Below are positions 29,247 to 57,725 of a stretch of 64,000 nucleotides of DNA, piece by piece. How positions within the stretch are numbered: the stretch's first letter is position 1; the number at the start of each line of letters is the position of its first letter. The stretch comes from Gammaproteobacteria bacterium (GTDB taxonomy: Bacteria; Pseudomonadota; Gammaproteobacteria; UBA5335; SLRW01): the NCBI GenBank assembly GCA_035638775.1, contig DASQZJ010000023.1:10827-74826 (forward strand). The letters are read 5' to 3'. Under the pieces are notes generated by a model that was given only the letters and a program-made list of their open reading frames with translations, did no database searches and was not told where the DNA came from. The position numbers were made by a program, and so were the translations under genes.

Positions 29247-31331
29247 TCACCCCGCGGCAGGCTCCCATTGCTCCAGCGCGCCCGCCTCGATGTAGCGCGT
29301 GGACGGATCGAACAGCTCCCGGCCCGCCAGCATGCCCTCGTAGATCGCGTGCTCGATCTGCCGCGGCGCATGGCAGTCCCCGATGCGGTGCACGCTGATC
29401 CCGCGGTCCTTGAGCGCGAAGTACAGGTTGGCCTCGGCGCGGTGGCCGGTCGCCAGGACGACGCTGTCGAACTCGCCCAGGCTGTGCTCCCGTCCGGAAA
29501 ACAGGTTGTAGGCGATCACCTCCCGACCGCGGATCTCCTTCGCCCAGTGGTTGACGGTGTACTCGAGCCCGGCTTCGAACAGCCGCTGGAATACGATGGG
29601 CTGGTCCAGCGTCTGAACGATGTTCGGTGCGAGGCCGTTGAAGCGGGTCAGGACGTGGACCCGGCAGCCGGCCTGCTGCAGTTTCTCCGCCGTTCCCAGG
29701 ACATAGCGGGTGCCGTCGTCATCGAGGATCAGGCTTCGGCCGCCGGCGCGGTCGGGGTCCTCCAGCACCTCGGGCACGGTAAGCACATGCTCGCCCCGTA
29801 CGCCGGGCAGTTCCGCCACCATCGGGTTCACGGCGCTGAAGCCGGTGCGCAGGGGACTGGAGCCGGTGGCGACGATCACGCCGTCCGGCTGCAGTGCCAG
29901 GACGCTGTCGGCGTCCGCTTCCTCGCCCAGCCGGATGTTCACCCCGTGGCGCCGCATCTGGACCTCCAGGTCGCGGGCGATCCAGGCGAAGCTGCCGCGC
30001 GCGGGCTGCTGCACGACGCTGTTGACCTGGCCCCCGAGTCGCTGCTCGCGCTCGAGCAGGGTCACGCGGTGGCCGCGGGCCGCCAGGGTTTCCGCCGCCT
30101 TCATGCCGGCCGGTCCGCCACCGACCACGACCCAGTGGCCGGGGTTCGCCGCCGGCTCGAGCGTGTCCGGGCCAAACCGCTCCTCGCGGCCGGTCGCCGG
30201 ATTCAGGATGCAGGTGATGGGCCGGGCCTGGAACAGCCGCCCGATGCAGCCCTGGTTGCAGCGGATGCAGTGGTAGACCTCGTCCTCGCGGCCCTCGCGC
30301 ACCTTGTTCGCGTAGGCCGGGTCGGCGATCTGTTCACGCGTCATGGCGATCATGTCGGCCATGCCGCGGGCGAGGGCGTCCTCGGCCATCGCCGGATCCT
30401 TGATCCCGCCCACGGCGAACACGGGCACGTCGACGGCGCCGCGGATCTTCGACACCCGCTCCAGCAGCCACCCCTCCGGGACGTCGTTGGTGGGGATGCC
30501 GTAGCCGATGTTGTGGTAGGTGGCGGCGGTGGTGTTGACGTAGTCGATCAGGCCGGTTTCGGCGACCGTGGTCGCGATCCGTACCGCGGTGTCGACCTCG
30601 TAGCCGCCGGGCGCCATCTCCACCAGCGGCATGCGGATGCCAACGACGAAGTCGCGGCCCACGCGTTCGCGCACGCGCCGGATCACCTCCAGCGGGTAGC
30701 GCATGCGATTCTCGAAGCTGCCGCCGTACTCGTCCGTACGCTTGTTGAACAGCTCGGAGATGAACTGGTGCAGCAGGTAGCTGTGCGCCAGGTGCACCTC
30801 CACGCCGTCGAAGCCGGCCTCGCGGGAGTATGCGGCGCACAGGGCCCAGTATTCGGCGATCTCGTCCATGTCCTCGGGCTCCATCGGCTTGGGCGTCTCG
30901 CCGAAAGCCGGGGACTTGACGTCGGCGGAGGACCACAGCACGCGGAAATCGTCCATCGCGCTGCTGCTGCCGTTGACGCCGAAGTGGTTCTGCTGGGCGA
31001 TGATGCGTGCGCCGTGCTCGTGCACGGCGTCCGTCATGGCACGCTCCCGCTCGACGATCTCCCGACGATAGCCCCAGGAGAAGCCGCGCGAGCCCGTGTT
31101 GGACGTGGGATGGATCAGCCGGTTCCCGGTGATGATCAGGCCGATGCCGCCGCGCGCCCGCTCGCGCTGGTAGAAGACGTCCCGGCGGTTGGTCAGTCCG
31201 TCACGCATGTGAAAGACCTTCGCGTGCGCGGTCTGCATGATCCGGTTGCGGACGGTGATGTTGCCGATCTTCAGGCTCGAGTAAAGCCGCGGGTATCTCT
31301 GCTCCCCGGGCTGTTTCTGTCGTTCGTTCAT
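29247..31331 (-). CDS. Old-Yellow-Enzyme (FMN, 4Fe-4S) plus FAD/NAD(P)-binding two-domain reductase, 2,4-dienoyl-CoA reductase (FadH)-like, paralog 1
   Basis: ORF 29247..31562 trimmed to ATG 31331 (MNERQK, GAGGAGA RBS). ..GFDGVEVHLAHSYLLHQF.. .. CIRCNQGCIGR .. VVVGGGPAGMKAAE ... Preceded by its own -24/-12 promoter. Confidence 0.85.
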   Translation of the reverse strand: MNERQKQPGEQRYPRLYSSLKIGNITVRNRIMQTAHAKVFHMRDGLTNRRDVFYQRERARGGIGLIITGNRLIHPTSNTGSRGFSWGYRREIVERERAMTDAVHEHGARIIAQQNHFGVNGSSSAMDDFRVLWSSADVKSPAFGETPKPMEPEDMDEIAEYWALCAAYSREAGFDGVEVHLAHSYLLHQFISELFNKRTDEYGGSFENRMRYPLEVIRRVRERVGRDFVVGIRMPLVEMAPGGYEVDTAVRIATTVAETGLIDYVNTTAATYHNIGYGIPTNDVPEGWLLERVSKIRGAVDVPVFAVGGIKDPAMAEDALARGMADMIAMTREQIADPAYANKVREGREDEVYHCIRCNQGCIGRLFQARPITCILNPATGREERFGPDTLEPAANPGHWVVVGGGPAGMKAAETLAARGHRVTLLEREQRLGGQVNSVVQQPARGSFAWIARDLEVQMRRHGVNIRLGEEADADSVLALQPDGVIVATGSSPLRTGFSAVNPMVAELPGVRGEHVLTVPEVLEDPDRAGGRSLILDDDGTRYVLGTAEKLQQAGCRVHVLTRFNGLAPNIVQTLDQPIVFQRLFEAGLEYTVNHWAKEIRGREVIAYNLFSGREHSLGEFDSVVLATGHRAEANLYFALKDRGISVHRIGDCHAPRQIEHAIYEGMLAGRELFDPSTRYIEAGALEQWEPAAG

Positions 31332-31391
31332 TGCGTGTCTCCTCGCGCTTCTCCGGCGCCGCGTTCCGGTCTCTCCCGGCACTACCGGAAA

Positions 31392-31407
31392 GCAACATCC
31401 GTACCAG
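31392..31407 (-). promoter_or_regulatory. Sigma-54 (-24/-12) promoter for the FadH-like gene
   Basis: The minus strand reads CTGGTACGGATGTTGCTT. This is one mismatch from TGGCAC-N5-TTGC with correct spacing. The -12 element lies 61 nt upstream of ATG 31331. Confidence 0.6.
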
Positions 31408-31662
31408 CGGCCTCCGCCGCGCGGCGTGCCCGGTCGGGGCGTCCCTGCTGATGCAGGGAAGAAACGGCTGTTGCGCTGCCGGGGCGACCCGAGGGCAACG
31501 ATGCCCCGCCGGGCGACGGGCTGACGCGATGGTCCGGAACTTGCTTGTGCCCCGATGTCCACCCGGCGATCGCGCTGCCGCGACGGATGCGGGGATCGAG
31601 GGGTGAACGGGAGCTCGCAGCTCGCCGGGCCGGTGCCGTCGTTCGCGGTGGACGGAAGGACG

Positions 31663-31686
31663 GGGGGCGGGCCCGTGCCCGCCCCC
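31663..31686 (-). terminator. GC-rich hairpin downstream of the activator gene (putative terminator or insulator)
   Basis: GGGGGCGGGC-ccgt-GCCCGCCCCC, a perfect 10-bp stem 27 nt after the stop at 31713. No U-tract. Confidence 0.35.
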
Positions 31687-31712: not shown

Positions 31713-33722
31713 TCAGGAGTCGCCGGGCCGCGTCCCTTCGAAGGCCGGCGCGCCGTGCTGGCCCCGGTGCCGGCGCAGCTTGCGCCACAGCGTGGTCCGG
31801 CTCAGCTTGAGGCGGCGGGCGGCCTCGCTGATGTTGCCGTTGCACTGGGCCACCATGTCGACGATGCGGCTGTACTCGTTCTGCTCCACGAAGGCCTTGA
31901 GCGAATCCGGATGGTCCGCCTCGCGCCCCGGCTCCGCCGGCGTGGCGAAGAATTCCGGCACCATGGCGCGCAACTGGGCCTCGGTGTCGCGGAGCATCTC
32001 GTCGCCGTGCGCGTACATGACGGCGAGCCGCTCGATGACGTTCTCCATCTCGCGCACGTTGCCCGGCCAGCCGTACCGGCGCAGGAACGGCGCGATGCGC
32101 TCGATCAGCGGCCCGGCGTCCCGGGTCGAGCCCAGTCCCGCCAGGGTGACCGCGAGATGGCGGCGGGCCAGGTCGAGCACGTCCTCGCCCCGCTCGCTCA
32201 GCGCGGGGAGATGGATGCGCAGGATGTTGAGCCGGTAGTACAGGTCCGAGCGCAGTGCGCCCGACTCCATGGACTCCCTCAGGTCCCGGTTGGTGGCGGC
32301 GATCACGCGGACATCGATGGGAATGGGGTCTCCCCGGCCCAGCGGCACCACCTCCTTCTCCTGCAGAACCCGCAGCAGCCGGGTCTGCAGCGCGACGGGC
32401 ATCTCCGCGATCTCGTCCAGGAAGATGGTACCGGTGTGCGCCAGCTCGAACAGGCCGGACTGCCCGCCCCTGCGCGAGCCGGTGAAGGCGCCTTCCTCGT
32501 AGCCGAAAAGCTCGCTCTCCAGCAGGCTGTCGGGAATCGCTGCACAGTTGACGGCGACGAAAGGCGCGTCCCGGCGACTGCTCGCGTTGTGAATGCCCTG
32601 GGCGAAGATCTCCTTGCCGGTCCCGGTCTCCCCGGTGATCAGGACCGTGGCATTGGTGTCCGCATACCGGGCGCACAGCGCCGTGACCTGGCGCATCGCG
32701 GGTGAGGCGCCGATGATGTCGTCGAGGCTGTAGCGCGCGCTGAGGTTGCGCCGGCGGTTGCGGGACCGGATGTTGCGATCGACCCGCTCGATCATGCTGG
32801 TGTCCTGGACCGTGAGCACGGCGCCGCAGACCAGATCGTTGTCCTTGATCGGGATGCGGTTGGTCACCAGCGTGCGGCTGCCGAAGCGCTCGATCTTCTC
32901 CAGTGACGCCTGTCCCTGCCGGATCGTCCCGGCGAGCCCGAGGCTGGGCGCCAGCTCGCTCAGGCGGCGGCCCTCGAGGGCATCGGTGGACAGCCCCGTG
33001 AGGCTCTCCATGGCCGGATTCACGAGCTGCACCCGCTCCTCGTCGTCGACCGCGAGCACGCCCTCGCTGAGATGGCGCAGGATGATGTTGACGCGCTCCG
33101 CACGCCGCTCCTCCGCGGCACGGATGTGGGCGATGTCGATGGCATCGTCGATTGCCTGGCGCACGGAATTGGGCGAGTAGGCGAGAATGCCGATCAGGCC
33201 CTGCCGCTCCGCCAGCTCGGTCACCAGGCTCGAGCCGACGATCACCTTGTAGCCGCGTGAGGCGAGCTCCCGGAAGGCCTCCCGGGCATCGTCGATGGTG
33301 GTGTACGAACGCTGCTCGATGTCCAGGTTGAGCAGCTGCTTGATCTCGTCCAGCTCGCTGTTGGTCTGGCGGAAGGTGACCACCGCGATCTGGTCGGACA
33401 GGCGCCGTGCCTTGATCAGCGCACGCATCAGGTCGACGCCGGTTACCGGGACCCGGACCACCGGCACGGTGAACGTGTCCTTCAGGTAGGTGCCGTTGGC
33501 GCCGGCGCTCAGGAAGACGTCGACCTCGCCGCGCTCGACCAGCTCCCGGGCGATGTCGACCGCGTCGTCGAACACCTTGTCCAGTACCGTGATCTGCGCG
33601 CGCCCGGCATAGTCCGGCATCAGGCTGTGCACCAGCCTGCTCAGCCCCTTGTAGCTGATCGCCGTGATCCGGGGCGGCCGGGTGACCGGCTCCCGTGCGG
33701 CCAGCATCCCCGCCTGGCTCAT
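31713..33722 (-). CDS. PrpR-family sigma-54-dependent transcriptional activator (PrpR_N sensor, PAS, AAA+, Fis-type HTH)
   Basis: ORF 31713..33872 trimmed to ATG 33722 (MSQAGML). The N-terminus is PrpR_N-like (..AISYKGLSRLV..VFLSAGANGTYL..VVRVPVTGVDLMRAL..). Walker A GETGTGKE. ESELFGYEEGAFTGSRRGG (GAFTGS as in E. coli PrpR). C-terminal ..NISEAARRLKLSRTTLWRKL. Confidence 0.85.
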   Translation of the reverse strand: MSQAGMLAAREPVTRPPRITAISYKGLSRLVHSLMPDYAGRAQITVLDKVFDDAVDIARELVERGEVDVFLSAGANGTYLKDTFTVPVVRVPVTGVDLMRALIKARRLSDQIAVVTFRQTNSELDEIKQLLNLDIEQRSYTTIDDAREAFRELASRGYKVIVGSSLVTELAERQGLIGILAYSPNSVRQAIDDAIDIAHIRAAEERRAERVNIILRHLSEGVLAVDDEERVQLVNPAMESLTGLSTDALEGRRLSELAPSLGLAGTIRQGQASLEKIERFGSRTLVTNRIPIKDNDLVCGAVLTVQDTSMIERVDRNIRSRNRRRNLSARYSLDDIIGASPAMRQVTALCARYADTNATVLITGETGTGKEIFAQGIHNASSRRDAPFVAVNCAAIPDSLLESELFGYEEGAFTGSRRGGQSGLFELAHTGTIFLDEIAEMPVALQTRLLRVLQEKEVVPLGRGDPIPIDVRVIAATNRDLRESMESGALRSDLYYRLNILRIHLPALSERGEDVLDLARRHLAVTLAGLGSTRDAGPLIERIAPFLRRYGWPGNVREMENVIERLAVMYAHGDEMLRDTEAQLRAMVPEFFATPAEPGREADHPDSLKAFVEQNEYSRIVDMVAQCNGNISEAARRLKLSRTTLWRKLRRHRGQHGAPAFEGTRPGDS

Positions 33723-34093
33723 GATCGTCGCTTCCCCCTGCGATGCGCCCGGGGCACCCGATCGGATCCGGTGCGTGACCGGCTCCGTCGTCGGGCGGTC
33801 GCCGCCGGCTCGAACCTGGCCCGGACGGCTCGCGTCCCCGGGGGTTTCCTTCTTGTGTCGTGCAAGGCCCATGCCTGCCAGCTCCCTGTTGGGCTAAACC
33901 CTTGTGCGTACGGGGCGTGAGCGGCGGGAGCCCCGATGGAACCGGCATGGACGGGTATCGTTATTCTGTAACAGGTATGTAGCACATGAGAAACAGCACG
34001 GCCAGTGCCGCCATGCCGACCGGCCCTCCCGGCGGCTCTCCGCCCGGGCAAAACACGCGCCCGATAAAGGACTTAATCGGTGATGTGCGATCT

Positions 34094-34109
34094 TGGCACG
34101 GGGGTTGCT
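34094..34109 (+). promoter_or_regulatory. Canonical sigma-54 (-24/-12) promoter
   Basis: TTGGCACGGGGGTTGCTT is an exact TGGCACG-N4-TTGCT. It is divergent from the activator gene and lies about 335 nt upstream of the DUF1329 ATG. Confidence 0.7.
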
Positions 34110-34441
34110 TCTCCTCCCGCGGGAAACGGCGGACGCCCGATACGGCCAGTGCGAGAACGGTCACCGTGATCGGCACCTGGCGCAATGAGCGACACCGGCG
34201 GGACAGCGGCGCCGCTGCACGAGGGATCCCGCCGGACAACAACGGCAAGGCAGCGAGGGCCCGTCAGCACGTCCGGATTCCCGACTCGAGCGGCTTGCCG
34301 GGTTCCGGTCCGACCGGGCGCGCGGCGGGAAGGTCCGGTCGGGAACAGGACCACGGGCGTGCGGGCTGGCGGCTGCGGCGGCGGGCGGGAGCCGGATGGC
34401 CGAGGCAGCCCGCCGGCGCACCGTAACCGAGGAGGACTGAA

Positions 34442-35722
34442 ATGTTCGCTTTGAAGAAGATCTGCATGTACGCGGCGCTGGGGGTGGGCGTGGCATCACT
34501 GATGTCCGTGGCCTCGGCCAGGGAGCTTGCGGCCGGCACGGTGATCAACGCGTCGAACTTCGACCAGCTCAAGAACGACACCTTCGAGCAACACACCATC
34601 GCCAGCATGGTCCCGAGTCGGCTCGAGTGGCTGATCAAGAAGCACGGCCTGACGATCCGCCTGGCGCATTCCAAGCCGATCCACATGGATCCGGGATACA
34701 TCAAGCGTACGAAGGAGCACGCCGGCGAGGCGAAGATCAACCCGAAGACTCACGAGATGGAGAACTGGAGCGGCAGCGGCGCGCCCTTCCCGTACGACGA
34801 CATCTCGGCGAAGGACCCGCTCGCGGGCTGGAAGCTGATCTGGGACTTCTACGTCGAGCAGGTGGACGGCGACTACACGCATTTCCCGCGGTTTGCCTAC
34901 CTGCTGATCGACGGCAACAAGGGCATCGAGCGCACGCAGGTGTGGAGCTGGTACCGGGTCAAGATGGTCGGGCTGATCAGCGAGGACCACAAGCCGGTCC
35001 AGGGCGACGGCTCGATCCTGAACAAGACCCAGATCAGTGCCGTCTACCCGCAGGACATCCGCGGGCTGGGCACGCTGACCATCCGCTACATGGCGGACAA
35101 GGTGGACAACACCTGGGCGTACCTGCCGGCGGTCCGGCGCGTGCGGCGCCTGTCCGGCGGCGCCTGGATGGACCCGATCGGCGGCACCGACCAGTTGCAG
35201 GACGACATCAACATCTGGAACGCGCGCCCCAACTGGTACCCGCACATCAAGGTGCTGCGCAAGCAGTGGATGCTGGTGACCGCTCACTCCAAGTGGTCGT
35301 GGAACGAGAAGGGCGGTACCGACGCGCAGAAGTACCCCGAGGTCGATCTGCAGCACAAGCCGTACTGGAATCCCAAGACCGGCTGGGAGCCGCGCCAGGT
35401 CTACGTGGTCGAGGCCGATGCGCCGGACATCCACCCGTACTCCAAGAAGATCATGTACGTGGACGCCAAGTTCCCCTGGATCTGGCAGGGCGAGGCCTAC
35501 GACAAGAAGGGCAAGTTCTGGAAGTACATGTTCTGGCTGGCAATGGAGCACACCTGCCGCGGCAACGGCACCAAGGTGATCTGGCCGGCCCAGGGCGAGG
35601 TGCTGGACTACCAGCGCATGCACGGGACGGTGTTCGTCTCCAACAACAACTGGACCTGCAACCCGAAGGGGCTCAAGCCGAGCGACGTCTCGCTGGGCAG
35701 CCTGATGGCGGCCGGCAGGTAA
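34442..35722 (+). CDS. DUF1329-family periplasmic/outer-membrane-associated protein (LolA-like fold family)
   Basis: 426-aa ORF with a GAGGAGG RBS and signal peptide MFALKKICMYAALGVGVASLMSVASA. ..GAPFP.. ..WYRVK.. ..NTWAYLPAVRRVRRLS..DP..GTD...DD.. ..Y.K..MYVD is the DUF1329 pattern as I recall it. Confidence 0.85.
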   Translation: MFALKKICMYAALGVGVASLMSVASARELAAGTVINASNFDQLKNDTFEQHTIASMVPSRLEWLIKKHGLTIRLAHSKPIHMDPGYIKRTKEHAGEAKINPKTHEMENWSGSGAPFPYDDISAKDPLAGWKLIWDFYVEQVDGDYTHFPRFAYLLIDGNKGIERTQVWSWYRVKMVGLISEDHKPVQGDGSILNKTQISAVYPQDIRGLGTLTIRYMADKVDNTWAYLPAVRRVRRLSGGAWMDPIGGTDQLQDDINIWNARPNWYPHIKVLRKQWMLVTAHSKWSWNEKGGTDAQKYPEVDLQHKPYWNPKTGWEPRQVYVVEADAPDIHPYSKKIMYVDAKFPWIWQGEAYDKKGKFWKYMFWLAMEHTCRGNGTKVIWPAQGEVLDYQRMHGTVFVSNNNWTCNPKGLKPSDVSLGSLMAAGR

Positions 35723-35730
35723 CGGCCGCG

Positions 35731-35758
35731 CTCCCGGCCGGCTCCGGCCGGCCGGGAG
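35731..35758 (+). terminator. Intra-operon GC-rich hairpin after the DUF1329 gene (possible attenuator or partial terminator)
   Basis: CTCCCGGCCGG-ctccgg-CCGGCCGGGAG, a perfect 11-bp stem 9 nt after the stop. No U-tract. Confidence 0.4.
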
Positions 35759-35798
35759 CCCCGACCGTGGGCAAGACAAGACGACCGGAGGGACGACC

Positions 35799-36440
35799 AT
35801 GGATCTGACGCCCGGCGGTAGCGCCCTGCTGATCATCGACATGCAGAACGGCTTCCTGCATCCGCAGGGGTCCTGCGCGAGCATCGGGCTGCCCTGCGAC
35901 GCGCTGCGTGCGGCCGTGCCAGGCTGCCGGCAGCTGCTGGAGGCGGCCCGGCGCGAGCGCATGCCGGTGATCTTTACGCGTTACATGTACCGGCCCGACT
36001 ACAGCGACGGCGGGGTGGTGATCCGGGAGTTCTTCCCGGACCTGGCGACCTCGGGGGCGCTGCGTGCCGGCAGCTGGGATGCCGAGGTGGTCGACGAGCT
36101 CGCGCCCCGCGAGGGCGAGCTGGTGGTGGACAAGAACCGTCCCAGCGCGTTCTACGGCACACCGCTGGAGAGCTACCTGAACGGCCTGCATGCCGACAGC
36201 CTGATCGTGTGCGGCGTGACCACCAACGTGTGCGTCGAGACCACGGTGCGGGACGCGATGCAGCGGGACCTGAAGGTCTGGGTGGTGGGCGAGGCGACCG
36301 CGGAGTTCGACCGTGACCGGCACGAGGCGGCGCTCCACTCGATGGGCTGGATGTTCGGCCAGGTCGTGCGGCTCGATGCCGTGCTGAAGGAAATCCCGCG
36401 CCTGGCCGGGGAGCGCGAGCCGGCCGCGGCGGGCTCCTGA
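35799..36440 (+). CDS. Isochorismatase-family cysteine hydrolase
   Basis: 213-aa ORF. ..ALLIIDMQNGF.. ..K.R.SAFYGT.L...L.. ..LIVCGVTTNVCVETTVRDA.. carries the Asp-Lys-Cys triad pattern. Confidence 0.85.
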   Translation: MDLTPGGSALLIIDMQNGFLHPQGSCASIGLPCDALRAAVPGCRQLLEAARRERMPVIFTRYMYRPDYSDGGVVIREFFPDLATSGALRAGSWDAEVVDELAPREGELVVDKNRPSAFYGTPLESYLNGLHADSLIVCGVTTNVCVETTVRDAMQRDLKVWVVGEATAEFDRDRHEAALHSMGWMFGQVVRLDAVLKEIPRLAGEREPAAAGS

Positions 36441-36494
36441 AGGCGGCATCCGGCGATAGTGACACGCGGCCCGGGCGGCCGGCGGAGGTGAGCG

Positions 36495-37544
36495 ATGGCG
36501 GGGCATTTCGTGATCGACGGTGTGGTGCATCCCTACAACTTCAGCCGGGAGAACCTCCAGGGCCGGTTCGGCGAGTTGTTCAACGACACCATGTACAGCT
36601 ACTACCCGTACGTGAACCCGCCGGAGATCGCGTTCAGCCGCGAGCAGTGGGAGCGGGAGTGGCAGCCGGAGGAGTTCATCGAGACGATCCTGCTCGAGAG
36701 CCCCACCGACATGATCTGCGTCCATTCGCTGCCGATTTACGACGCCTACAGGGACGGCCTGGCGGCCGCCGACAAGTGCGCGCGGCTCAAGCGCGACTAT
36801 CCCGACCGCGTCCTGTGGTACGGCGGCGTCAATCTGTGCTGGCCGGAGCGGGCGCAGGAAGACCTGCAGCAGCAGATCGAGCAGGGCTGCGACGGCATCA
36901 AGCTGTACCCGGCCCGCTACGAGGAGGGGCGGACCCGGTTCTGGCGGCTCAATGACGAGGACCTCGCCTTCCCGCTGCTGGAAGAGGTGCGCCGGCACGG
37001 GATCCGGAACGTCGCGATCCACAAGGCGCTGCCGCTGGGGCCGGTGAGCACCGAGTCGATGCGCATCGACGACATCTCCGACGCGGCCAACGTGTTCCCG
37101 GAGATCAACTTCCAGATCGTCCACGCCGGCTTCATGTTCGTGGACGAGACCAAGTTCCTGATCGCCAACCATCCCAACGTGTACGCCACCATGGAGGCGT
37201 CGACCCTGTTCTGCATCATCAACCCGGCCGGGCTGCAGCAGATCCTGACCGAGTTCCTGCTCTACGGCGGGCCCGAGAAGATCATCTACTCCTCGGCGGC
37301 GGTCAACCCGCATCCGAGGATCGTCCTGGAGGCGTTCGAGAGCTTCCGGATGCCGCCGGATTCGCCGATCCAGCTGGACGAGGCGTTCCGCGAGGCATTT
37401 CTCGGCGGCAACCTGGCGCGGCTGCACGGCATCGACGTCGCCGAGCGCCGCAGGCGGCTGGCGGACGACCGCTTCGCCCGGCACGTCGCGGAGCACGGCT
37501 ACCGCCGTCCCTGGACCGCGGTGCACGGGGAGGCGGCGGCATGA
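36495..37544 (+). CDS. Amidohydrolase_2 (ACMSD/LigI/LigJ/LigW-type TIM-barrel) family protein, member A
   Basis: 349-aa ORF. N-terminal VIDGVVHPYNF takes the place of the usual ID-H-H motif. ..GIKLYP.. ..NVAIHKALP.. ..QIVHAGF.. ..YSSAAV.. follow the strand-end residues of the fold. Confidence 0.8.
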   Translation: MAGHFVIDGVVHPYNFSRENLQGRFGELFNDTMYSYYPYVNPPEIAFSREQWEREWQPEEFIETILLESPTDMICVHSLPIYDAYRDGLAAADKCARLKRDYPDRVLWYGGVNLCWPERAQEDLQQQIEQGCDGIKLYPARYEEGRTRFWRLNDEDLAFPLLEEVRRHGIRNVAIHKALPLGPVSTESMRIDDISDAANVFPEINFQIVHAGFMFVDETKFLIANHPNVYATMEASTLFCIINPAGLQQILTEFLLYGGPEKIIYSSAAVNPHPRIVLEAFESFRMPPDSPIQLDEAFREAFLGGNLARLHGIDVAERRRRLADDRFARHVAEHGYRRPWTAVHGEAAA

Positions 37545-37945: not shown

Positions 37946-37955
37946 GGAGGTGCCC

Positions 37956-50082: not shown

Positions 50083-50106
50083 GCCCGGCCGGGTCCGTCG
50101 GCCAAG

Positions 50107-50136: not shown

Positions 50137-50311
50137 GGGTCTTCGGACCGGCTGTTCCGCATCTGTAACGCGGGTGTGTCAGCGGGGTAACAACCGCCGG
50201 CAGCCCCGGCTCGGACGGGGCTGTGCGGCGGGCCGCGTGTCCGCTGCCGGAGGCGCTAACGGCAGGAAAAACAGGCAAAAGCATCCGCATTCGGTGCCTT
50301 GGCCCGGGAGT

Positions 50312-50327
50312 TGGCACAGCGCTTGCT
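50312..50327 (+). promoter_or_regulatory. Canonical sigma-54 (-24/-12) promoter
   Basis: TTGGCACAGCGCTTGCTT is an exact TGGCAC-N5-TTGCT, about 110 nt upstream of ATG 50436. An A-rich tract (GGAAAAACAGGCAAAAGC) lies just upstream and may be a bending site. Confidence 0.7.
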
Positions 50328-50435: not shown

Positions 50436-51635
50436 ATGAAAGCGCTGGAAGGAATCAAGGTCATCGACCTCACCCACATGCTCTCCGGCCCCTACGGCAC
50501 GATGCTGCTGGCCGACCTCGGCGCGACCACGATCAAGGTCGAGCCGCCCGGCCGCGGCGAGGGGACCCGCAAGCTGCTGGCCGACAACCCCCGCTACTCG
50601 GTAAAGGGCATGGGGGCCTACTTCTTCACGCTCAACCGCAACAAGCGCAGCGTCTGCATCGACCTCAAGTCGGAGCAGGGCAAGGCCGTCTTCCTGGACC
50701 TGGTGCGCGCCTGCGACGTGGTGTTCGACAACTTCAGCGCCGGCGTTCCGGCCCGCCTGGGGATCGATCACGAGGCGCTCGCCGCCGTGAACCCGCGGAT
50801 CATCACCTGCAGCGTCACCGGCTTCGGCGAGACCGGCCCCGACAACCTCCGGCCAGCCTTCGACCAGGTGATCCAGGGCATGGGCGGGGGCATGTCGATC
50901 ACCGGCTATCCGGACGGCGGCCCGCTGCGCGCCGGCATCCCCATCGGCGACCTCGCGGGCGGCATGTTCGGCGCCATGGGCGTGCTTTCCGCGCTGGTGG
51001 CGCGCGAGAAGACCGGCAAGGGCCAGCACCTGGACGTGTCGATGCTGGACTGCCAGATCTCCCTGCTGAACTACATGGCGACGATGTTCTTCCTCTCGGG
51101 CGAAAACCCTCACCCGCTGGGTAACGGGCACTTTGTCCATGTGCCGTACAACACCTTCGCCACCAGCGACGGCTGGATCATCATCGCGGTGATCTTCGAC
51201 AGCTTCTGGCTGAACCTGCTGAAGGTCATCGACGTGCCCGAGCTCCGGATCGAGAAGTACCACACCCAGCCGGGCCGCTTCGAGGATCGGGAGTTCATCA
51301 ACGCCCGCCTCGGCGAGGTTCTGCGCACCAACACCACCGAGCACTGGCTGCGCGAGCTGCGCGCCGAGCGCATCCCCTGCGCCCCGGTGAACAACTTCGA
51401 GCAGGCCCTCAACGACAGCCAGGTCCGCTACCGGAACATGGTGGTGAAGGTCCGGCACCCGGAGAACGGCGAAGTCGAGATGCCCGGCAACCCGATCAAG
51501 ATGTCGGAGACCTGCGAGGACAGCTACGCCCCGCCCCCGCTGCTGGGACAGGACACGGACGAGGTCCTGCGCGAGCTGCTGGGCATGGATGCCGAGCGCC
51601 TCCGCGCGCTGCGCGAGGCGGGAGTCATAGGTTGA
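50436..51635 (+). CDS. Family III CoA-transferase (CaiB/BaiF/Frc family)
   Basis: ORF 50223..51635 trimmed to ATG 50436. MKALEGIKVIDLTHMLSGPYGTMLLADLGA..IKVE.P..G.. ..NRNKRS..IDLK.. ..DV...NF.. is the hallmark N-terminus. Confidence 0.9.
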   Translation: MKALEGIKVIDLTHMLSGPYGTMLLADLGATTIKVEPPGRGEGTRKLLADNPRYSVKGMGAYFFTLNRNKRSVCIDLKSEQGKAVFLDLVRACDVVFDNFSAGVPARLGIDHEALAAVNPRIITCSVTGFGETGPDNLRPAFDQVIQGMGGGMSITGYPDGGPLRAGIPIGDLAGGMFGAMGVLSALVAREKTGKGQHLDVSMLDCQISLLNYMATMFFLSGENPHPLGNGHFVHVPYNTFATSDGWIIIAVIFDSFWLNLLKVIDVPELRIEKYHTQPGRFEDREFINARLGEVLRTNTTEHWLRELRAERIPCAPVNNFEQALNDSQVRYRNMVVKVRHPENGEVEMPGNPIKMSETCEDSYAPPPLLGQDTDEVLRELLGMDAERLRALREAGVIG

Positions 51636-51641
51636 ATCGTC

Positions 51642-52577
51642 ATGGCTGAACAGGAATTCGTCAGCGTCAACGAGGTCGGGCTGCGCGACGGGCTGCAGAA
51701 CCAGTCGGTGCAGGTCCCCATCGAGGGCAAGCTGCGCCTGGCACGGGCCCTTGCCGACGCCGGCTTGCGCAGCATGGAGGCGACCAGCTTCGTGTCGCCG
51801 CGGGCGGTGCCGCAGATGGCGGATGCCGCCGAGCTGTTCCCGGCGCTGCCGCGCCCCGATGAAATCGACTACTCCGCCCTGATCCCCAACAGGAAGGGCT
51901 ACGAGCGTGCCCTGGAGGCCGGTGTTCGCTCGGTCGCGGTGGTGCTGGCGGCGACCGACACCATGAACCGCAAGAACATCAACATGTCGCTCGCCGAGAC
52001 TCGCCGGGTCTGCGCCGACGTGGTCGCGCGCGCGAAGCGTGACGGCGTTCACAGCCGCGCCTACGTGGCTGTGGCATTTGAATGTCCCTACGAGGGACGC
52101 GTGTCCGCGCAGCGCACAACGGAGCTCACGGAAGAGATGTTCGGGGCCGGTGCCGACGAGGTCATCATCGCCGACACCATCGGGGCGGCGAACCCCTCCG
52201 CATCGTTCGACCGCTTCAGCGGGCTCGCGGAACGCTTCGACCCGGAGCGCCTGTGCGCCCACTTCCACGACACCCGCGCGCTGGCCCTGGCCAACGCCTG
52301 GGCCGCCCTGCACGCGGGGATCCGCCGTTTCGACAGCTCCATCGGCGGCCTGGGGGGCTGCCCGTTCGCGCCGGGTGCCGCGGGCAACGTGGCGACCGAG
52401 GACCTGGTGCTGATGCTCGGGATGTGCGGCTTCCGCACCGGCATCGATGTTCCCGGTCTGCGTCGCGCCGTCGAGGTCGCCTCGGAGCTGGTCGGCCGCG
52501 AGCTCGGTGGACGCATGACGGCGTGGCTGCGCTCGCAGGACCGCCGGGACGGCTCCGGCAAGGGAGATGCGGGGTAA
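51642..52577 (+). CDS. Hydroxymethylglutaryl-CoA lyase-like (HMGL/DRE-TIM) acyl-CoA lyase
   Basis: 311-aa ORF. ..VNEVGLRDGLQN.. ..E.TSFVSP..VPQMAD.. ..ADTIG.. ..HFHDTRA.ALAN..AAL..G...FDSS.GGLGGCPFAPGA.GN..TEDLV. Confidence 0.85.
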   Translation: MAEQEFVSVNEVGLRDGLQNQSVQVPIEGKLRLARALADAGLRSMEATSFVSPRAVPQMADAAELFPALPRPDEIDYSALIPNRKGYERALEAGVRSVAVVLAATDTMNRKNINMSLAETRRVCADVVARAKRDGVHSRAYVAVAFECPYEGRVSAQRTTELTEEMFGAGADEVIIADTIGAANPSASFDRFSGLAERFDPERLCAHFHDTRALALANAWAALHAGIRRFDSSIGGLGGCPFAPGAAGNVATEDLVLMLGMCGFRTGIDVPGLRRAVEVASELVGRELGGRMTAWLRSQDRRDGSGKGDAG

Positions 52578-53659
52578 TGGCATTGCGCTGGGAGGAAACG
52601 TCCATGCGCGGGGGCGGTCCGGCCGAAGGCGGGGTCGATCGGCATGCGGAGCGTCGCGGACTCGCGGCCCGGCTCCGGGCCGGCGTGCTCGGCCTGATCC
52701 CGTGGGCGGTGATCGCGCTGCTGCTGATCGCGGCGTTCACGGTGCGTCCGGGTGCCGTGGGCAAGGCCGTGCAGCCGCCGCCGATCTCGCGCCAGGACGA
52801 CTTCTACGGCATCGCCCATCCAGCACCGCAGGTGCTCTGGCTCGCCGGCAACCTCGGCAAGATCGTGCGCAGCGACGACGGCGGACGCTCCTGGACCGTC
52901 CAGGAGACCCCGACCCGGCGCAACCTCCAGGCCATCGCCGCCTGGAACGCGAACGACGCCGTCGCCGTGGGCGACGGGGCGACCGTGCTGGTGACCGACG
53001 ACGGCGGGCGGAGCTGGAAGCAGGTTGCGGCCCCGCACTCCAAGGTCGCGGACAAGTTCATCCGCGTACGGATCATGCCGGACGGCAGCGCCTGGATCGT
53101 GGGCGTCATGGGCGCGGTCCTCGAGTCCACCGACCACGGCCGCACCTGGACCCGCAAGGCACCGGTCGAGGACGTCGCGCGCAACGACATCGCCGGCGTC
53201 GGGGACAGTCGCTGGGTGGTGGGTGAGTTCGGCAGCATCCTGGTCTCGCGCGATGGCGGTGCCACCTGGTCGAAGGACACGGCGCCGGTGCAGAACACGC
53301 TGAACGGCGTTCGTTTCCGCGACGCCGAGCACGGCGTCGCGGTGGGCCTGCAGGGCACGATCCTGGTGACGGACGACGGCGGGCGCAGCTGGAAGCAGGT
53401 GACGGGGGTGACCGGTGAGCACCTGTTCGCGGTGGCCTGGGACGGCCACCGGTGGATGGCCGCGGGCGCCGACGGGGTGGTGCTCTCGGCGCCGCCGCCG
53501 GCCCGCGACTGGAAAGCCTCACGCGTCGCGCCGCGGGACTTCGCCTGGCATACCGACCTGGTTCCGGCCGCCGGCGGCGGCTGGTACCTGGTCGGCGCCG
53601 ACGTCGGCGCACTGGGCCAGGGCGGCTGGCGGGTGTTCAACGGAGGGAAGAGCTCGTGA
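52577..53659 (+). CDS. Membrane-anchored BNR/Ycf48-like beta-propeller protein
   Basis: ORF 52082..53659 trimmed. ATG 52577 overlaps the upstream TAA by 1 nt. An alternative ATG at 52604 has a GGAGGA RBS. One TM (GVLGLIPWAVIALLLIAAF), then reiterated S/T-D-D/H-G-G-R/A-S/T-W motifs (SDDGGRSW, TDDGGRSW x2, TDHGRTW, RDGGATW). Confidence 0.8.
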   Translation: MALRWEETSMRGGGPAEGGVDRHAERRGLAARLRAGVLGLIPWAVIALLLIAAFTVRPGAVGKAVQPPPISRQDDFYGIAHPAPQVLWLAGNLGKIVRSDDGGRSWTVQETPTRRNLQAIAAWNANDAVAVGDGATVLVTDDGGRSWKQVAAPHSKVADKFIRVRIMPDGSAWIVGVMGAVLESTDHGRTWTRKAPVEDVARNDIAGVGDSRWVVGEFGSILVSRDGGATWSKDTAPVQNTLNGVRFRDAEHGVAVGLQGTILVTDDGGRSWKQVTGVTGEHLFAVAWDGHRWMAAGADGVVLSAPPPARDWKASRVAPRDFAWHTDLVPAAGGGWYLVGADVGALGQGGWRVFNGGKSS

Positions 53660-56034
53660 CCCGGTTCATCCGCAGCTTCGCCGACTTCTGCATCCGCCGG
53701 CGGGTGCCCATCGTGGTGCTGCTCGGCACGCTCACCATCGTGTTCGGCGTGCTGGCGACGCGGATCCAGGTCAAGACCGTGTTCGAGGACATGCTTCCGC
53801 TGTCCCATCCCTGGATCAAGACCCACGAGAAGTACAAGGACACCTTCGGCAGCTCGAACATGGTCACCATCATGGTGACCGCCCGCCATGGCGACATCTT
53901 CCAGCGGCCGGTGCTCACCAGGATCCGGAAGATCACCCGGGAGCTCCGCCAGGTCGAGGCGGTCAACCAGTTCCAGATCATTTCGCTGGCCTCGAAAAAG
54001 CTCAAGACCGTCAAGGCGACCAGCTGGGGCATCGACACCGTGCCCCTGATGTGGCCGGACACCCCGAAGACGCAGAAGGGGATCGACAAGCTGCGCCAGG
54101 AGGTGCTGCGCAACCCGCTGGTCTACGGCTCCTACGTCTCGCCCGACCTGAAGTCGGCCCTGATCACGGTGGACTTCATCGACCGGCTGGTCGACTACCC
54201 GGAGATCTTCAGCCAGATCAACCACATCATCGACGGCGTGCGCGGCAACGACGTGCGCATCAACGTCATCGGCCAGCCGATGCTCTACGGCTGGGTGGGC
54301 AAGTACCTGCCGCAGACCATGATGATCACCCTGCTGACCATCGGCATGCTCAGCCTGACGCTGTTCATACTCGCGCGGACCTGGCGCGGCACGCTGCTGC
54401 CGCTGCTGGCCGGGCTGACCAGCGCCTGCTGGTCGCTGGGCATCGCCCACCTGCTGGGGATCAACTTCGATCCACTGGTCGTGGTGGTCGCGTTCCTGAT
54501 CACTGCGCGGTCGATCTCCCATTCCGTGCAGCTGATCACCCGCTACGAGGACCTGCGTACGGAGGAACGCGGCATCCGCCTGCGCGACGCCGCGCGGGTC
54601 AGCCTGGCCGAGCTGTTCCGGCCCGGCATGCTGGGGGTCATCGCCGACGCGGGCGCGATCCTGGTGGTGCTGCTGACGCCCATCCCGCTGCTGCAGAAGG
54701 TCTCGATCATCGGCGCCATCTGGGTATCCACCATCGCCGTGTCTGCCGTGATCATGACGCCGGTGCTGCTGTCGTTCCTGAAGCGGCCCGGGGGCGCGGT
54801 GCACCCGATCAACCTGGACGGGCCGATGCATCGCTTCCTTCAGCTGTGCGTGCGCATCGCGGTGACCCGGGCGCGCTACGTCGCGATCGCGGTGGCCGTG
54901 CTGCTGTTCGCGGGCTCCGGCCTGCTGGCGATGAACCTGCAGGTGGGCGATGCACGGGCCGGCTCGCCGATCCTCTGGCCCGGGCACCAGTACAACCGCA
55001 GCGCAACCGCGATCAACCACAAGTTCGCGGGCACCGATCGGCTGTTCGTGGTGTTCCACGGCAAGGAAAAGGACGCCATGAAGAAGCCCGACGTGCTGCG
55101 CACGATGCAGGGCTTCCAGCGCTACATGGAGGCGCAGCCGGAGGTGGGCGGAACGATGTCGCTGGTGGACGTGGTCAGCTCGATCAACCGCGTGCTGCAC
55201 GGCGGCAATCCGCGTTACCAGGAGCTTGGCGACAGCGCCACCCAGAACGGGCAGTTCCTGTACATGTTCGTGTCCGGCTCCGATCCCGGGGACCTGAACC
55301 GCTATGCCGATCCGGACTTCCGCAACGGCGCGGTCACGATGTTCTTCCACGACCACACGGGCGTGACGATCCGCACCGCCTTCCGGCGGATCCAGGAATT
55401 CATGCAGGGCCACCCCATGAAAGACGCCAGCTACCAGCTGGCCGGCGGCCTGGTGGGCGTGCTCGCCGCGGTCAACGACGTGCTGCTGAAGGGCCAGATC
55501 GAGGCGATCGCGCTCGGGCTGCTGGTCGTGGTGCTGTGCGCCACCGCGGTGTACCGATCCAGCGTGGCCGGGATGTTCTTCATGGTGCCGGTGCTGTTGT
55601 CCAACACCGTCACCTTCGCGTGCATGAGCCTCATGCACGTGGGCCTGAACATCAACACGGTCCCGGTGGTGGCTCTCGGCATCGGCCTGGGGGTCGATTA
55701 CTCGTTCTACATCATCGACGGGATCAAGGAAGAGCTGGCGCGCCACGGAAACGTCGTGGAGGCCCTGACCAGCTCCCTGCACAGCGCCGGACGCGGCGTG
55801 CTCATCACGGGCGCGACCCTGGTGGTGAGCGTGATCCTGTGGATGTTTTCCTCGCTTCGCTTCCAGGCGGAGATGGGGCTGCTGATCGCGCTGTGGCTGG
55901 CCGTCTCGGCCAGCAGCGCCCTGTTCCTCATGCCGGCGCTGGCCTACGTGTTCCGGCCCCGGTTCATTTTCGGCGACGAACGCGGCGGGGCGTGGCGCTC
56001 CGGGAGCGTTCGAGCAGTGGCGGAGTCCTCGTGA
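53656..56034 (+). CDS. RND-superfamily (MMPL/HpnN-like, 12-TM, two-periplasmic-loop) transporter
   Basis: ORF 53452..56034 trimmed to GTG 53656 (GGAGGGA RBS, GTGA overlap with the upstream stop). 792 aa. Two repeats of 1 TM + large loop + 5 TM. ..GINFDPLVVVVAFLITARSISHSVQL.. and ..GLNINTVPVVALGIGLGVDYSFY.. are the TM4/TM10-like segments. Confidence 0.85.
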   Translation: MTRFIRSFADFCIRRRVPIVVLLGTLTIVFGVLATRIQVKTVFEDMLPLSHPWIKTHEKYKDTFGSSNMVTIMVTARHGDIFQRPVLTRIRKITRELRQVEAVNQFQIISLASKKLKTVKATSWGIDTVPLMWPDTPKTQKGIDKLRQEVLRNPLVYGSYVSPDLKSALITVDFIDRLVDYPEIFSQINHIIDGVRGNDVRINVIGQPMLYGWVGKYLPQTMMITLLTIGMLSLTLFILARTWRGTLLPLLAGLTSACWSLGIAHLLGINFDPLVVVVAFLITARSISHSVQLITRYEDLRTEERGIRLRDAARVSLAELFRPGMLGVIADAGAILVVLLTPIPLLQKVSIIGAIWVSTIAVSAVIMTPVLLSFLKRPGGAVHPINLDGPMHRFLQLCVRIAVTRARYVAIAVAVLLFAGSGLLAMNLQVGDARAGSPILWPGHQYNRSATAINHKFAGTDRLFVVFHGKEKDAMKKPDVLRTMQGFQRYMEAQPEVGGTMSLVDVVSSINRVLHGGNPRYQELGDSATQNGQFLYMFVSGSDPGDLNRYADPDFRNGAVTMFFHDHTGVTIRTAFRRIQEFMQGHPMKDASYQLAGGLVGVLAAVNDVLLKGQIEAIALGLLVVVLCATAVYRSSVAGMFFMVPVLLSNTVTFACMSLMHVGLNINTVPVVALGIGLGVDYSFYIIDGIKEELARHGNVVEALTSSLHSAGRGVLITGATLVVSVILWMFSSLRFQAEMGLLIALWLAVSASSALFLMPALAYVFRPRFIFGDERGGAWRSGSVRAVAESS

Positions 56035-56122
56035 GGGGCTCATCGCAGGCCGGTTACGGTCGCCGCTCCCCGGCAGCGTACGCAAGGCCTGGCTCAATTA
56101 GAGAGGGGATGGAGGACGACAA

Positions 56123-57679
56123 ATGTTCACAAGAGCAAGGGCGATAGGGAAGCTTGCGGCCCTGGCGGTCGCGGCGCTCGGCCTGGTGCCGCTGGCCGCG
56201 TCCGCCGGGCAGCTGGAATGGCAGGGGAGCGACTGGAGCCTGACGGTGTCCGGTTATGCCCGCCAGTACCTTTCGATGAACCTGCAGAACCCGCCGGAGA
56301 CCAAGGCGAACGACCGCTACAATCTGTCCATGGTGCGCACCGTACTGGAGCCGTACTTCGACGGCCATGTCAGCGCCGTGCACTACCACCTGGTGGGCCG
56401 GATCGCGCGGGAGCCGACCACCACCTACCTGCAGCGGCTCGAGACACCGTCGGACCTCGTCAGCGGCGGCGCCGGAACGGGGGGCGCCAACGGCGGCAGC
56501 AACCTGGTGCACGACCAGTACGACGTCAACGACATCCGCGAGGCCTGGCTCGGCTTCCACGTCGGCCAGTGGACCGAGGTGCGGCTGGGCAAGCAGCAGA
56601 TCGTGTTCGGGCACACGGATTTCTTCCACGCCCTGGACATGGTCGAGGGCTACGACTTCACCTGGCGATCCTTCCTGGTGCCCGAGAACGAGGACGTGCG
56701 CAAGCCGCTCAACCTCGTGAACGTGATGGTCAATACCGCCCAGGGCGGCCAGTTCCAGCTGGTGGTGATCCCGGGCGATGCCAACCGCAAGCGGGATATC
56801 GGCAACACCTATGACCTGTTCGGCGGCCGCTGGGCCAACCAGCCGAACAAGGGCATCGATTTCCTGCAGGTGATGGACTACAACTACGACCACCCCGAGG
56901 GCAAGGCCAGCGACACCACCGGGGCCCTGCGCTGGAGCGGCATCGCGGGCGACATCAGCTACTCCGTCGACTACCTGCACGTGTACAACCCGGACCCGGT
57001 GGTGAACTCCGTCTTCGCACCCTGGAAGGCGGCCCCCAGGGGCCTGCTGGGCGACTTCATCTACCCGGTGGTCGACACGGTGGGCGGCAGCATGAGCGCC
57101 TACTCGTCGTGGGCCGACGCGGTGTTCAGCACCGAGGTCGCGTACACCCTGGACAAGCCCTACAACGTGGGCACCAACGGCGCTACCTGCGGCTCGCCGT
57201 TCCCGGGGTTCTGCGGCGTCAAGCAGAAGAACACGGTCAACTTCATGGTGCGCATGGACAAGAACGTGTCCTGGACGCACACGCTGTTGGGGGCCGCCCG
57301 CGGCTCGTTCATGTCCTTCCAGTTCTTCGACACGTGGATCCCGAACTTCAAGAAGTCGGATGACATCGTCGACCTGGCCGGGTACGCGGCGCCGAAGCAC
57401 GAGCACAACATGATCGCGACGGGCATCCTCGGGCTGAGCTACATGAACGCCCGGATCAATCCGCAGCTGGCGGGTGGCTACGACCTCACCAACGGCGGCG
57501 GCTTCCTCATCCCGAGCGTGCAGTTCGTCCGCGGTGACCACTGGCGCCTGAAAGTGGAGGCGGACCTGTTCTACCCGCACGGCAGCAACGAGTTCGGGGG
57601 CAACTCCTCGGACACGCACCTGTTCGGGTACTTCGCCAACAACGACCAGCTCGCGCTGCGGCTCAGCTACCTGTTCTGA
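56123..57679 (+). CDS. DUF1302-family outer-membrane beta-barrel protein
   Basis: 518-aa ORF with a GGAGGACGAC RBS. Signal peptide MFTRARAIGKLAALAVAALGLVPLAASA. ..VSGYARQY.. ..IREAWLGF....W..VRLGKQQIVFG.TDFF.. ..C-terminal ..LALRLSYLF (aromatic terminus). Confidence 0.85.
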   Translation: MFTRARAIGKLAALAVAALGLVPLAASAGQLEWQGSDWSLTVSGYARQYLSMNLQNPPETKANDRYNLSMVRTVLEPYFDGHVSAVHYHLVGRIAREPTTTYLQRLETPSDLVSGGAGTGGANGGSNLVHDQYDVNDIREAWLGFHVGQWTEVRLGKQQIVFGHTDFFHALDMVEGYDFTWRSFLVPENEDVRKPLNLVNVMVNTAQGGQFQLVVIPGDANRKRDIGNTYDLFGGRWANQPNKGIDFLQVMDYNYDHPEGKASDTTGALRWSGIAGDISYSVDYLHVYNPDPVVNSVFAPWKAAPRGLLGDFIYPVVDTVGGSMSAYSSWADAVFSTEVAYTLDKPYNVGTNGATCGSPFPGFCGVKQKNTVNFMVRMDKNVSWTHTLLGAARGSFMSFQFFDTWIPNFKKSDDIVDLAGYAAPKHEHNMIATGILGLSYMNARINPQLAGGYDLTNGGGFLIPSVQFVRGDHWRLKVEADLFYPHGSNEFGGNSSDTHLFGYFANNDQLALRLSYLF

Positions 57680-57697
57680 GCACGGCGCGTCGGTCAC

Positions 57698-57725
57698 GGC
57701 CCGGCCCGCGGACGCGGGCCGGGCC
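57698..57725 (+). terminator. GC-rich hairpin after the DUF1302 gene
   Basis: GGCCCGGCCCGCG-ga-CGCGGGCCGGGCC. The arms are perfect complements and the effective stem is about 11-12 bp. It lies 19 nt after stop 57679. No U-tract. Confidence 0.4.

Follow-up and report, generated by a model that had tools for sequence, protein, structure and literature searches.

The subject of this analysis is a 64,000-nucleotide stretch of DNA from a Gammaproteobacteria bacterium (assembly GCA_035638775.1, contig DASQZJ010000023.1, positions 10,827 to 74,826 of the forward strand), referred to as a whole as the window. It probably carries a multi-operon sigma-54 regulon under a single PrpR-family enhancer-binding protein, encoded at 31713-33722 on the reverse strand, and judging from the sequence this activator probably turns on about 35 degradation genes. 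A first-pass annotation had read one PrpR-type activator and several -24/-12 promoters as a single catabolic regulon. This reading was supported by the finding of the same upstream site at six of six promoters, by a half-site held in common with the PrpR enhancer and by the recurrence of the arrangement at orthologous units.

Promoters were scored with a sigma-54 weight matrix that was our own approximation of the published consensus and whose bit values are relative only. The pattern TGGCACNNNNNTTGCW with at most one mismatch was matched six times in the window against 1.5 expected, a number reached in 0 of 100 shuffles, and five of these matches coincided with sites of the first-pass annotation, every quoted sequence of which was recovered at its position. 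The three promoters described there as near-perfect (34094, 50312 and 31406-31392) gave the top three scores of the whole 64 kb, namely P3 (TTGGCACAGCGCTTGCT, 50311-50327, +, 19.0 bits), P2 (TTGGCACGGGGGTTGCT, 34093-34109, +, 17.9 bits) and P1 (CTGGTACGGATGTTGCT, 31391-31407, -, 17.3 bits). The two near-identical variants at 42442 and 45130 were likewise present as P4 (GTGGCACGGTTCTTGTA, 42441-42457, +) and P5 (GTGGCACGGAACTTGTA, 45129-45145, +), both at 13.4 bits and with GT replacing GC at -13/-12 in P4. A further promoter, P7 (CGGTACGATTCTTGCT, 26837-26853, +, 14.8 bits), lies outside the range considered earlier. In P3, P2, P1 and P7 the GG and GC are 10 bp apart within TGGCAC-N5-TTGCW, which is matched in full. 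All six promoters are intergenic and aimed at the next gene, in a region (26-64 kb) of which intergenic DNA makes up 8%, and their leaders span 45 to 333 nt (64 nt to the SnoaL start for P7, 60 nt to the start of an old yellow enzyme (OYE) gene for P1 and 333 nt for P2). The proposal that each listed site heads an operon accordingly stood for five sites, which scored 13.4-19.0 bits, and fell for the sixth, a weak copy at 39777. The sequence at 39777 exists and was rejected as a promoter: its score is 1.0 bit, it lacks an upstream motif and conservation is absent. The genes flanking it overlap in Salinisphaera, Algiphilus and Spiribacter, and there is therefore no space for a promoter.

Comparison of the promoter upstream regions with orthologous regions revealed GTTNC/GNAAC pentamers one helical turn apart, most commonly arranged as GTTNC-N6-GNAAC. 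Exact copies of this arrangement occur six times in the window against 0.37 expected, with a maximum of two in any shuffle. Such copies are located 68, 90, 89 and 157 nt upstream of P7, P4, P5 and P3, respectively, and one-mismatch copies 114 nt upstream of P2 and 58 nt upstream of P1. The P7 site (26747-26784) consists of two GTTGCAGCG repeats, the second of which forms the exact palindrome GTTGCAGCGGCGCAAC (26769-26784). Exact palindromes matching the pattern were also found at P4 (GTTCCGCGGCTGGAAC, 42351-42366, just 3' of the nitrilase stop codon) and P5 (GTTGCACCGCTGCAAC, 45040-45055). P3 has tandem sites (50154-50191), GTTCCGCATCTGTAAC being exact and GTGTCAGCGGGGTAAC having one mismatch, 22 bp apart. 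The P1 candidate site GTTTCTTCCCTGCATC (31450-31465, one mismatch) is accompanied by more GTTGC and GCAAC pentamers up to 31499, and the site common to P2 and a possible activator promoter (33968-33994) is composed of GTAAC, GTAGC and GAAAC pentamers at 11-bp steps.

The motif was further evaluated in loci fetched after the pattern had been fixed (L091-L094). It was found within 40-200 nt of six out of seven strong sigma-54 sites, and the 10 copies observed compare with 0.58 expected (Poisson P ~8e-10). In the window, L092 and L093 the motif stands 156-157 nt before the CoA-transferase promoter, and two additional loci (L097 and L098) have tandem sites at -138 and -116 before the promoter of their BNR-MMPL genes. 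In an alignment of the activator/CoA-transferase intergenic region from seven genomes, the upstream site and the -24/-12 element were the only conserved islands, and P3 is kept before the CoA-transferase gene in all seven loci.

Relatives of the activator with 52-83% identity were found in Salinisphaera sp. PC39, Algiphilus, Spiribacter salinus, Methylonatrum kenyense, a Porticoccaceae metagenome-assembled genome and several other assemblies. When the full activator was the query, a genome scan was dominated by matches to the generic AAA+ peptide FLDEIAEM and yielded a sole true orthologue (L001), and a metagenome scan restricted to the N-terminal 330 aa yielded two close loci. The invariant neighbour of the activator gene is a divergent pair of CoA_transf_3 and HMGL-like genes, and one locus (L094) holds just this pair plus an ABC transporter. 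Other genes recur as blocks in shuffled order: the DUF1329-to-nitrilase operon; the FAD oxidase with hydrolases; the small protein, methyltransferase, SnoaL, OYE and short-chain dehydrogenase/reductase (SDR) genes; LeuC(D)-VOC; single OYE genes; BNR-MMPL-DUF1302; isochorismatase with hydantoinase; and RidA with molybdopterin oxidoreductase. In two or more other genomes each block is preceded by a sigma-54 promoter of its own, and for most blocks the upstream site is retained too, so that promoters and most upstream sites recur before orthologous units. P7 is kept as CGGTACGTTTCTTGCT in L085 and L086, the latter having a counterpart of the P7 upstream site before the orthologous promoter. P2 with its long leader is kept in L084 and L086, and positions 33968-33994 form a conserved block in the alignment with these two loci. 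L086 also carries GTTCCATTGTCGCAAC at the position of the P4 upstream site, and OYE genes of L092 (16.4 bits) and L081 (Salinisphaera) have -24/-12 sites of their own.

From this conservation of blocks it follows that the unit is wider than the 29247-57725 (about 30 kb) first proposed. That range lies within the unit, which by its sequence is predicted to begin near 26.7 kb and to continue to 62.4 kb or further, probably as far as the window end, with P7 at 26837 on one side and conserved genes to the right of 57725 on the other. Isochorismatase and hydantoinase A come after the same cluster in L092, and in Salinisphaera RidA and molybdopterin oxidoreductase come after the OYE-SDR genes. Two observations were made in intergenic DNA of these relatives. 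The Algiphilus locus (L082, 16744-17529) contains two strong divergent sigma-54 promoters (18.0 and 17.3 bits) that drive EamA-LeuCD-VOC genes and an Amidohydro_1 gene missing from the window, with GNAAC pentamers at 11-nt steps between them. The activator-SnoaL gap of the Salinisphaera locus (L081, 11950-12520) contains a repeat of about 200 nt in two copies, each with inverted ends and short tandem repeats of the GACACAGAGG type, features suggestive of a miniature mobile element or of an insertion resembling repetitive extragenic palindromes.

The activator is encoded by the one reading frame of the window that contains GETGTGK, ELFGYE and GAFTGS, in agreement with the single enhancer-binding protein of the first-pass annotation. 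The 669-aa protein has the PrpR_N sensor domain noted there (confirmed by a Pfam match), a PAS domain inserted between PrpR_N and the AAA+ domain, a sigma-54 AAA+ domain with GAFTGS (Sigma54_activat, E = 3.5e-69) and HTH_8, and is by these domains a bacterial enhancer-binding protein. Its HTH domain ends in what we take for the recognition helix, which reads SRTTLWRKL, the corresponding segment of E. coli PrpR being SRTTFWRRL. Between prpR and prpB of E. coli, GTTTCA/TGAAAC repeats recur at intervals of 11-12 bp upstream of TGGCACACCCCTTGCT. In Salmonella the PrpR enhancer is CGTTTCATGAAACG and the effector is 2-methylcitrate (PMC4987338). The GTTTC/GAAAC half-site is thereby common to the window sites and the PrpR enhancer, whereas the spacing differs, the window sites having the form GTTNC-N6-GNAAC. 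These features link the sites to the local PrpR-like protein in particular, albeit indirectly.

A protein identical to it is annotated in a metagenome-assembled Gammaproteobacterium. In public annotation this protein goes by the name PrpR, and it passes the PrpR model TIGR02329 (567 bits, cut-off 499). It also resembles PrpR of Salmonella enterica and E. coli, the activator of prpBCDE, in having PrpR_N, a sigma-54 AAA+ domain with GAFTGS and HTH_8, in being divergent from a target operon and in the half-sites upstream of a TGGCAC-N5-TTGC promoter. It is nonetheless highly improbable that the protein is a true regulator of propionate or 2-methylcitrate metabolism with unrelated genes as neighbours. 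It fails the stricter model NF011953 (526 bits, cut-off 703), its sensor domain and that of E. coli PrpR share only 37% identity, and it contains an extra PAS domain of about 120 aa that is not in the 528-aa E. coli protein. The motif is positioned before six local promoters rather than one, and the predicted targets are not methylcitrate-cycle genes. As the first-pass annotation stated, prp genes are missing here: the PrpB, PrpC and PrpD families were not found among the window genes scanned against Pfam. Nor were prpB, prpC or prpD found beside 12 related activators, one locus having just a 78-aa PrpD fragment. Because none of these 12 loci carries prpBCD, the activator is best described from sequence as working like PrpR without being a propionate regulator, and "PrpR" annotation as misnaming the pathway. 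Recruitment of this kind has its nearest precedent in LvaR of Pseudomonas putida KT2440, a PrpR homologue that is divergent from the levulinate operon lvaABCDEFG and controls it (PMC10164729). Like the window activator, LvaR is a PrpR-family protein recruited to a non-propionate organic-acid pathway that proceeds via CoA thioesters. It differs in serving one seven-gene operon with an unrelated enzyme set.

Several observations weigh against a regulon of six promoters under the local activator. The motif was partly derived from window sequences, which leaves L091-L094 and L097-L098 as the only independent tests. The P1 site is the weakest of the six, with one mismatch and at only 58 nt. The pentamers before the P5 orthologues of Salinisphaera and Algiphilus form direct and not inverted repeats, and the binding grammar is therefore only partly defined. 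Further, rpoN is not in the window, and additional activators may be encoded elsewhere in the genome, the remainder of which lies outside the analysed window. The promoters could accordingly be real, with some or all of them served by an activator encoded elsewhere, such as NtrC under nitrogen limitation, and the local protein controlling the adjoining operon only. Such an arrangement would suit the many enzymes that release ammonia (the nitrilase-superfamily protein, isochorismatase-type amidases, hydantoinase A/B and RidA) as well as the weak site at P1. NtrC control was rejected, since no NtrC box (TGCACC-N5-GGTGCA, at most one mismatch) lies upstream of any promoter, the three near matches being intragenic. 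In addition, the PrpR-type motif precedes all six promoters and their orthologues, and the activator gene accompanies these operons in every relative examined. We thus regard control from elsewhere as unlikely.

A slightly better case, though still an improbable one, can be made that only P1, P2 and P3, and perhaps P7, are real. P4 and P5 would then be TTGTAA look-alikes, their genes would be read through from P2 and their palindromes would be hairpins at transcript ends. Sigma-54 promoters nearly always carry GC at -13/-12. P4 and P5 are instead of the form GG-N10-GT, with the sequence TGGCACGG..CTTGTAA, and the absence of the near-invariant C at -12 speaks against both. Their 13.4 bits are reached by single sites in some shuffles, and both palindromes begin at most about 25 nt from a stop codon. 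The palindromes were, however, rejected as terminators, as their RNA is not more stably folded than that of shuffles (z = -0.45 and +0.82). The same TTGT occurs in the pspA promoter of E. coli, TGGCACGCAAATTGTA, which has been established by experiment, and the variant -12 of P4 and P5 therefore has a working precedent. Elements orthologous to P5 are kept as TGGCACGGAATTTGGA in Salinisphaera and TGGCATGGAACTTGAA in Algiphilus, at equal distance and despite otherwise diverged spacers, before the same small gene (45190 in the window), which is the first gene of the operon there too. At P4, the 82% relative L086 retains the palindrome together with TGGCCGGGAACTTGA before the FAD-oxidase gene. Conservation of a non-C at -12 of P5 across three genera argues for function, perhaps as a deliberately weakened -12 contact.

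In the regulon model with the local activator we infer that the protein would bind arrays of GTTNC/GNAAC pentamers at helical-turn spacing, the usual unit being GTTNC-N6-GNAAC and often joined by a second unit 22 bp off. These arrays are positioned about 60-160 bp upstream of the six -24/-12 promoters (P7, P1, P2, P4, P5 and P3). Binding of a pathway intermediate to the PrpR_N sensor, and perhaps to the PAS domain too, would free the AAA+ domain, which would then reach RNA polymerase-sigma-54 through DNA looping and open the promoters. The genes turned on would encode an AmeABCD-like envelope system for hydrophobic compounds (DUF1329, DUF1302, BNR and MMPL/RND), ring-opening and amide-hydrolysing enzymes, enzymes of CoA activation, FadH-type ene-reductases and a terminal CoA-transferase with HMG-CoA-lyase-type cleavage. 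The activator may also regulate itself through a possible sigma-54 site before its own gene (CAGGCATGGGCCTTGCA, 33861-33877, -, 13.6 bits), which lies 139 nt 5' of the gene and across the P2 upstream site. This is held at low confidence because the element, kept in the 82% relatives L085 and L086 only, was not found in relatives of 75% identity or less. A separate sigma-54-like match of 13.9 bits at 31529-31545 (+), antisense to the activator gene strand and inside the P1 upstream region, is probably due to chance.

Multi-promoter catabolic regulons under enhancer-binding proteins are already well known. XylR drives the Pu and Ps promoters, and RedR1/RedR2 of Aromatoleum anaerobium are associated with three sigma-54 promoters for resorcinol degradation (PMC10084136). 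These systems resemble the present one in having one or two substrate-sensing activators and several separate -24/-12 promoters for one catabolic pathway, and differ in their sensor domains, which are of the V4R/XylR type or others and not PrpR_N, and in their enhancer sequences.

The window has a G+C content of about 70%. Genes were called by third-position GC bias and lists of open reading frames, followed by a Pfam scan that reproduced the gene list of the first-pass annotation for 29247-57725. The P7 operon (26917-29188, +) encodes a SnoaL-like protein (26917-27308), a LeuC-type aconitase-family dehydratase (27363-28775) and a small VOC/glyoxalase-fold protein (28772-29188), the last identified not by the Pfam scan but by way of a Glyoxalase-family gene at the same position in relatives. 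The SnoaL-LeuC-VOC trio or quartet also adjoins the activator in L081, L082, L092 and L100. In the window (27363-29188) VOC stands directly 3' of the LeuC-type large subunit, without the LeuD small subunit that is present in Salinisphaera, Algiphilus, L092 and Methylonatrum. P1 precedes a single-gene unit for a FadH-like OYE flavoenzyme (29247-31331, -) with Oxidored_FMN and Pyr_redox_2 domains. The P2 operon (34442-42328, +) encodes in order a DUF1329/LolA-like protein (34442-35722), an isochorismatase-like amidase (35799-36440), an Amidohydro_2 protein (36495-37544), a DUF59/FeS_assembly_P protein (37541-37945), an ADC-like protein (37950-38720), a second Amidohydro_2 protein (38749-39630), an acyl-CoA ligase (39816-41384) and a nitrilase-superfamily protein (41381-42328), an order identical in Salinisphaera, Algiphilus and Spiribacter.

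The P4 operon (42627-45028, +) consists of genes for a FAD_binding_4 oxidase (42627-44234) and an alpha/beta hydrolase (44231-45028). That of P5 (45190-50082, +) encodes a 118-aa protein without a Pfam family (45190-45546), an S-adenosylmethionine (SAM) methyltransferase (45592-46749), a SnoaL-like protein (46794-47204), a FadH-like OYE (47255-49315) and an SDR (49327-50082). The 118-aa protein has more than 1000 homologues, including ones in Binataceae, cyanobacteria and Cytophagales, and its gene is directly 5' of a gene for a 385-aa SAM methyltransferase in three of three loci examined (the window, L097 and L098). Behind P3 (50436-57679, +) follow genes for a family III CoA-transferase (50436-51635), an HMG-CoA-lyase-like protein (51642-52577), a BNR/Ycf48-like protein (52577-53659), an MMPL/RND HAE3-type transporter (53656-56034) and a DUF1302 outer-membrane protein (56123-57679), in the same order as in L092. 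The right-hand genes (57750-64000, +) encode an N-carbamoylsarcosine-amidase-like isochorismatase (57750-58364), hydantoinase A (58440-60506), hydantoinase B (about 60500-62394), RidA (ending at 62845) and a molybdopterin oxidoreductase (from 62846, cut by the window end).

Terminator-like hairpins had been placed at 50107, 57698 and 31663. All three exist, and a U-rich tail was found at the first only. This hairpin (50105-50128, +, tail UUCUGUUU) is the most terminator-like. The GC-rich hairpin 3' of the activator gene (31663-31686, -, z = -2.2) is a possible terminator with no clear U tail, and the 12-bp GC hairpin between the DUF1302 and isochorismatase genes (57698-57725, +, z = -1.0) has no U tail. 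The P2 leader (34110-34441) is also long in L084 and L086 (about 270-320 nt), with conserved patches. A riboswitch or small reading frame in this 333-nt leader was considered and rejected, as there was no Rfam match in the window, a fold z of -1.05 and no convincing small reading frame.

In searches against NCBIfam and the sequences of the Protein Data Bank (PDB), equivalog cut-offs were not exceeded by any enzyme, the only models passed being those for HMG-CoA lyase and LeuC at subfamily level, and nothing specific on this gene combination was found in the literature. The isochorismatase-like protein encoded from 57750 is similar to N-carbamoylsarcosine amidase (E = 3e-46), and the hydantoinase A/B pair is nearest to a caprolactamase model, under its cut-off. 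Together these proteins look like enzymes for ATP-dependent ring opening followed by an amidase. Since relatives additionally carry aminotransferases and RidA, a nitrogen-containing substrate is plausible. The two Amidohydro_2 proteins had been counted among C-N hydrolases, a view that their nearest solved relatives do not favour: one has no PDB relative and the other distantly matches decarboxylases and hydratases of the LigW and LigJ types. For the HMGL-like protein a close match to HMG-CoA lyases was obtained (E = 3e-69), and the CoA-transferase is nearest to mesaconate- and glutarate-type models, under their cut-offs.

The DUF1302, DUF1329, BNR and HAE3/MMPL RND proteins are all present in the window, and their genes form a single contiguous block in L092 and L001. 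They correspond to the DUF1302 outer-membrane protein, DUF1329 LolA-like periplasmic protein, BNR protein and HAE3 RND transporter of AmeABCD, which in Castellaniella defragrans is induced on monoterpenes (PMC6394551). In Pseudomonas, genes of these four types show cofitness on Tween 20, and their mutation impairs growth on fatty esters (bioRxiv 10.1101/2020.07.04.188060). By analogy, this envelope set points to a hydrophobic substrate. The window differs in that the four genes are split over two sigma-54 operons (DUF1329 in P2, BNR-RND-DUF1302 in P3) among amide-hydrolysing enzymes, and in its regulator, that of the P. putida envelope set being of the LuxR type. A hydrophobic nitrogen-containing or alicyclic acid, the substrate guessed at in the first-pass annotation, would fit the gene content.

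The effector may tentatively be sought among branched hydroxy-dicarboxylates, either HMG-like or citramalate-like. We base this guess on the CoA-transferase/lyase pair being the invariant partner of the activator, on the accompanying LeuC-type dehydratases and on analogy to 2-methylcitrate. It is possible, though it should be taken as speculative, that the genes encode an undescribed route for cyclic amide, imide or lactam degradation with such an effector, common to marine and hypersaline Gammaproteobacteria (Salinisphaera, Algiphilus, Spiribacter and Methylonatrum). The hydrophobic substrate, a cyclic amide, imide or lactam, would enter via the Ame-like envelope system and be opened by the hydantoinase-A/B-type ATP-dependent hydrolase, with the amidases acting next. 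The product would then be activated with CoA, reduced by the FadH-type enzymes and finally cleaved by the CoA-transferase and HMG-CoA-lyase-type pair.

Other genes of the window lie to the left of the unit. At 11328-14679 a fused LigB+LigA extradiol dioxygenase (-) adjoins a GCV_T-family protein (+), a family that includes tetrahydrofolate-dependent O-demethylases, and a 5-formyl-tetrahydrofolate cyclo-ligase is encoded at 24266-25264. The three suggest a neighbouring module for methoxylated aromatics, without a sigma-54 site. An AtuA-family gene (acyclic terpene utilisation) adjoins that of a 472-aa protein without a Pfam match at 20806-24169 (-), and a GAF-GGDEF-EAL signalling protein of cyclic-di-GMP turnover is encoded at 8736-11279.

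The analysis yields a concrete regulon model, with one activator, a defined motif, six promoters and about 35 genes of a pathway conserved across several genera, among them Algiphilus, which like Porticoccaceae is linked to hydrocarbon degradation. Many database "PrpR" proteins would accordingly belong to a subfamily with a PAS domain that is linked not to propionate genes but to genes for a CoA-transferase and an HMG-CoA-lyase-like protein. The model also puts the poorly understood DUF1302/DUF1329/BNR/RND envelope system under substrate-specific control together with a catabolic pathway, and the pair of promoter and activator could be used as a reporter in inducer and substrate screening. The interest of the system is mainly that it offers a tractable entry into an uncharacterised yet conserved catabolic gene set.

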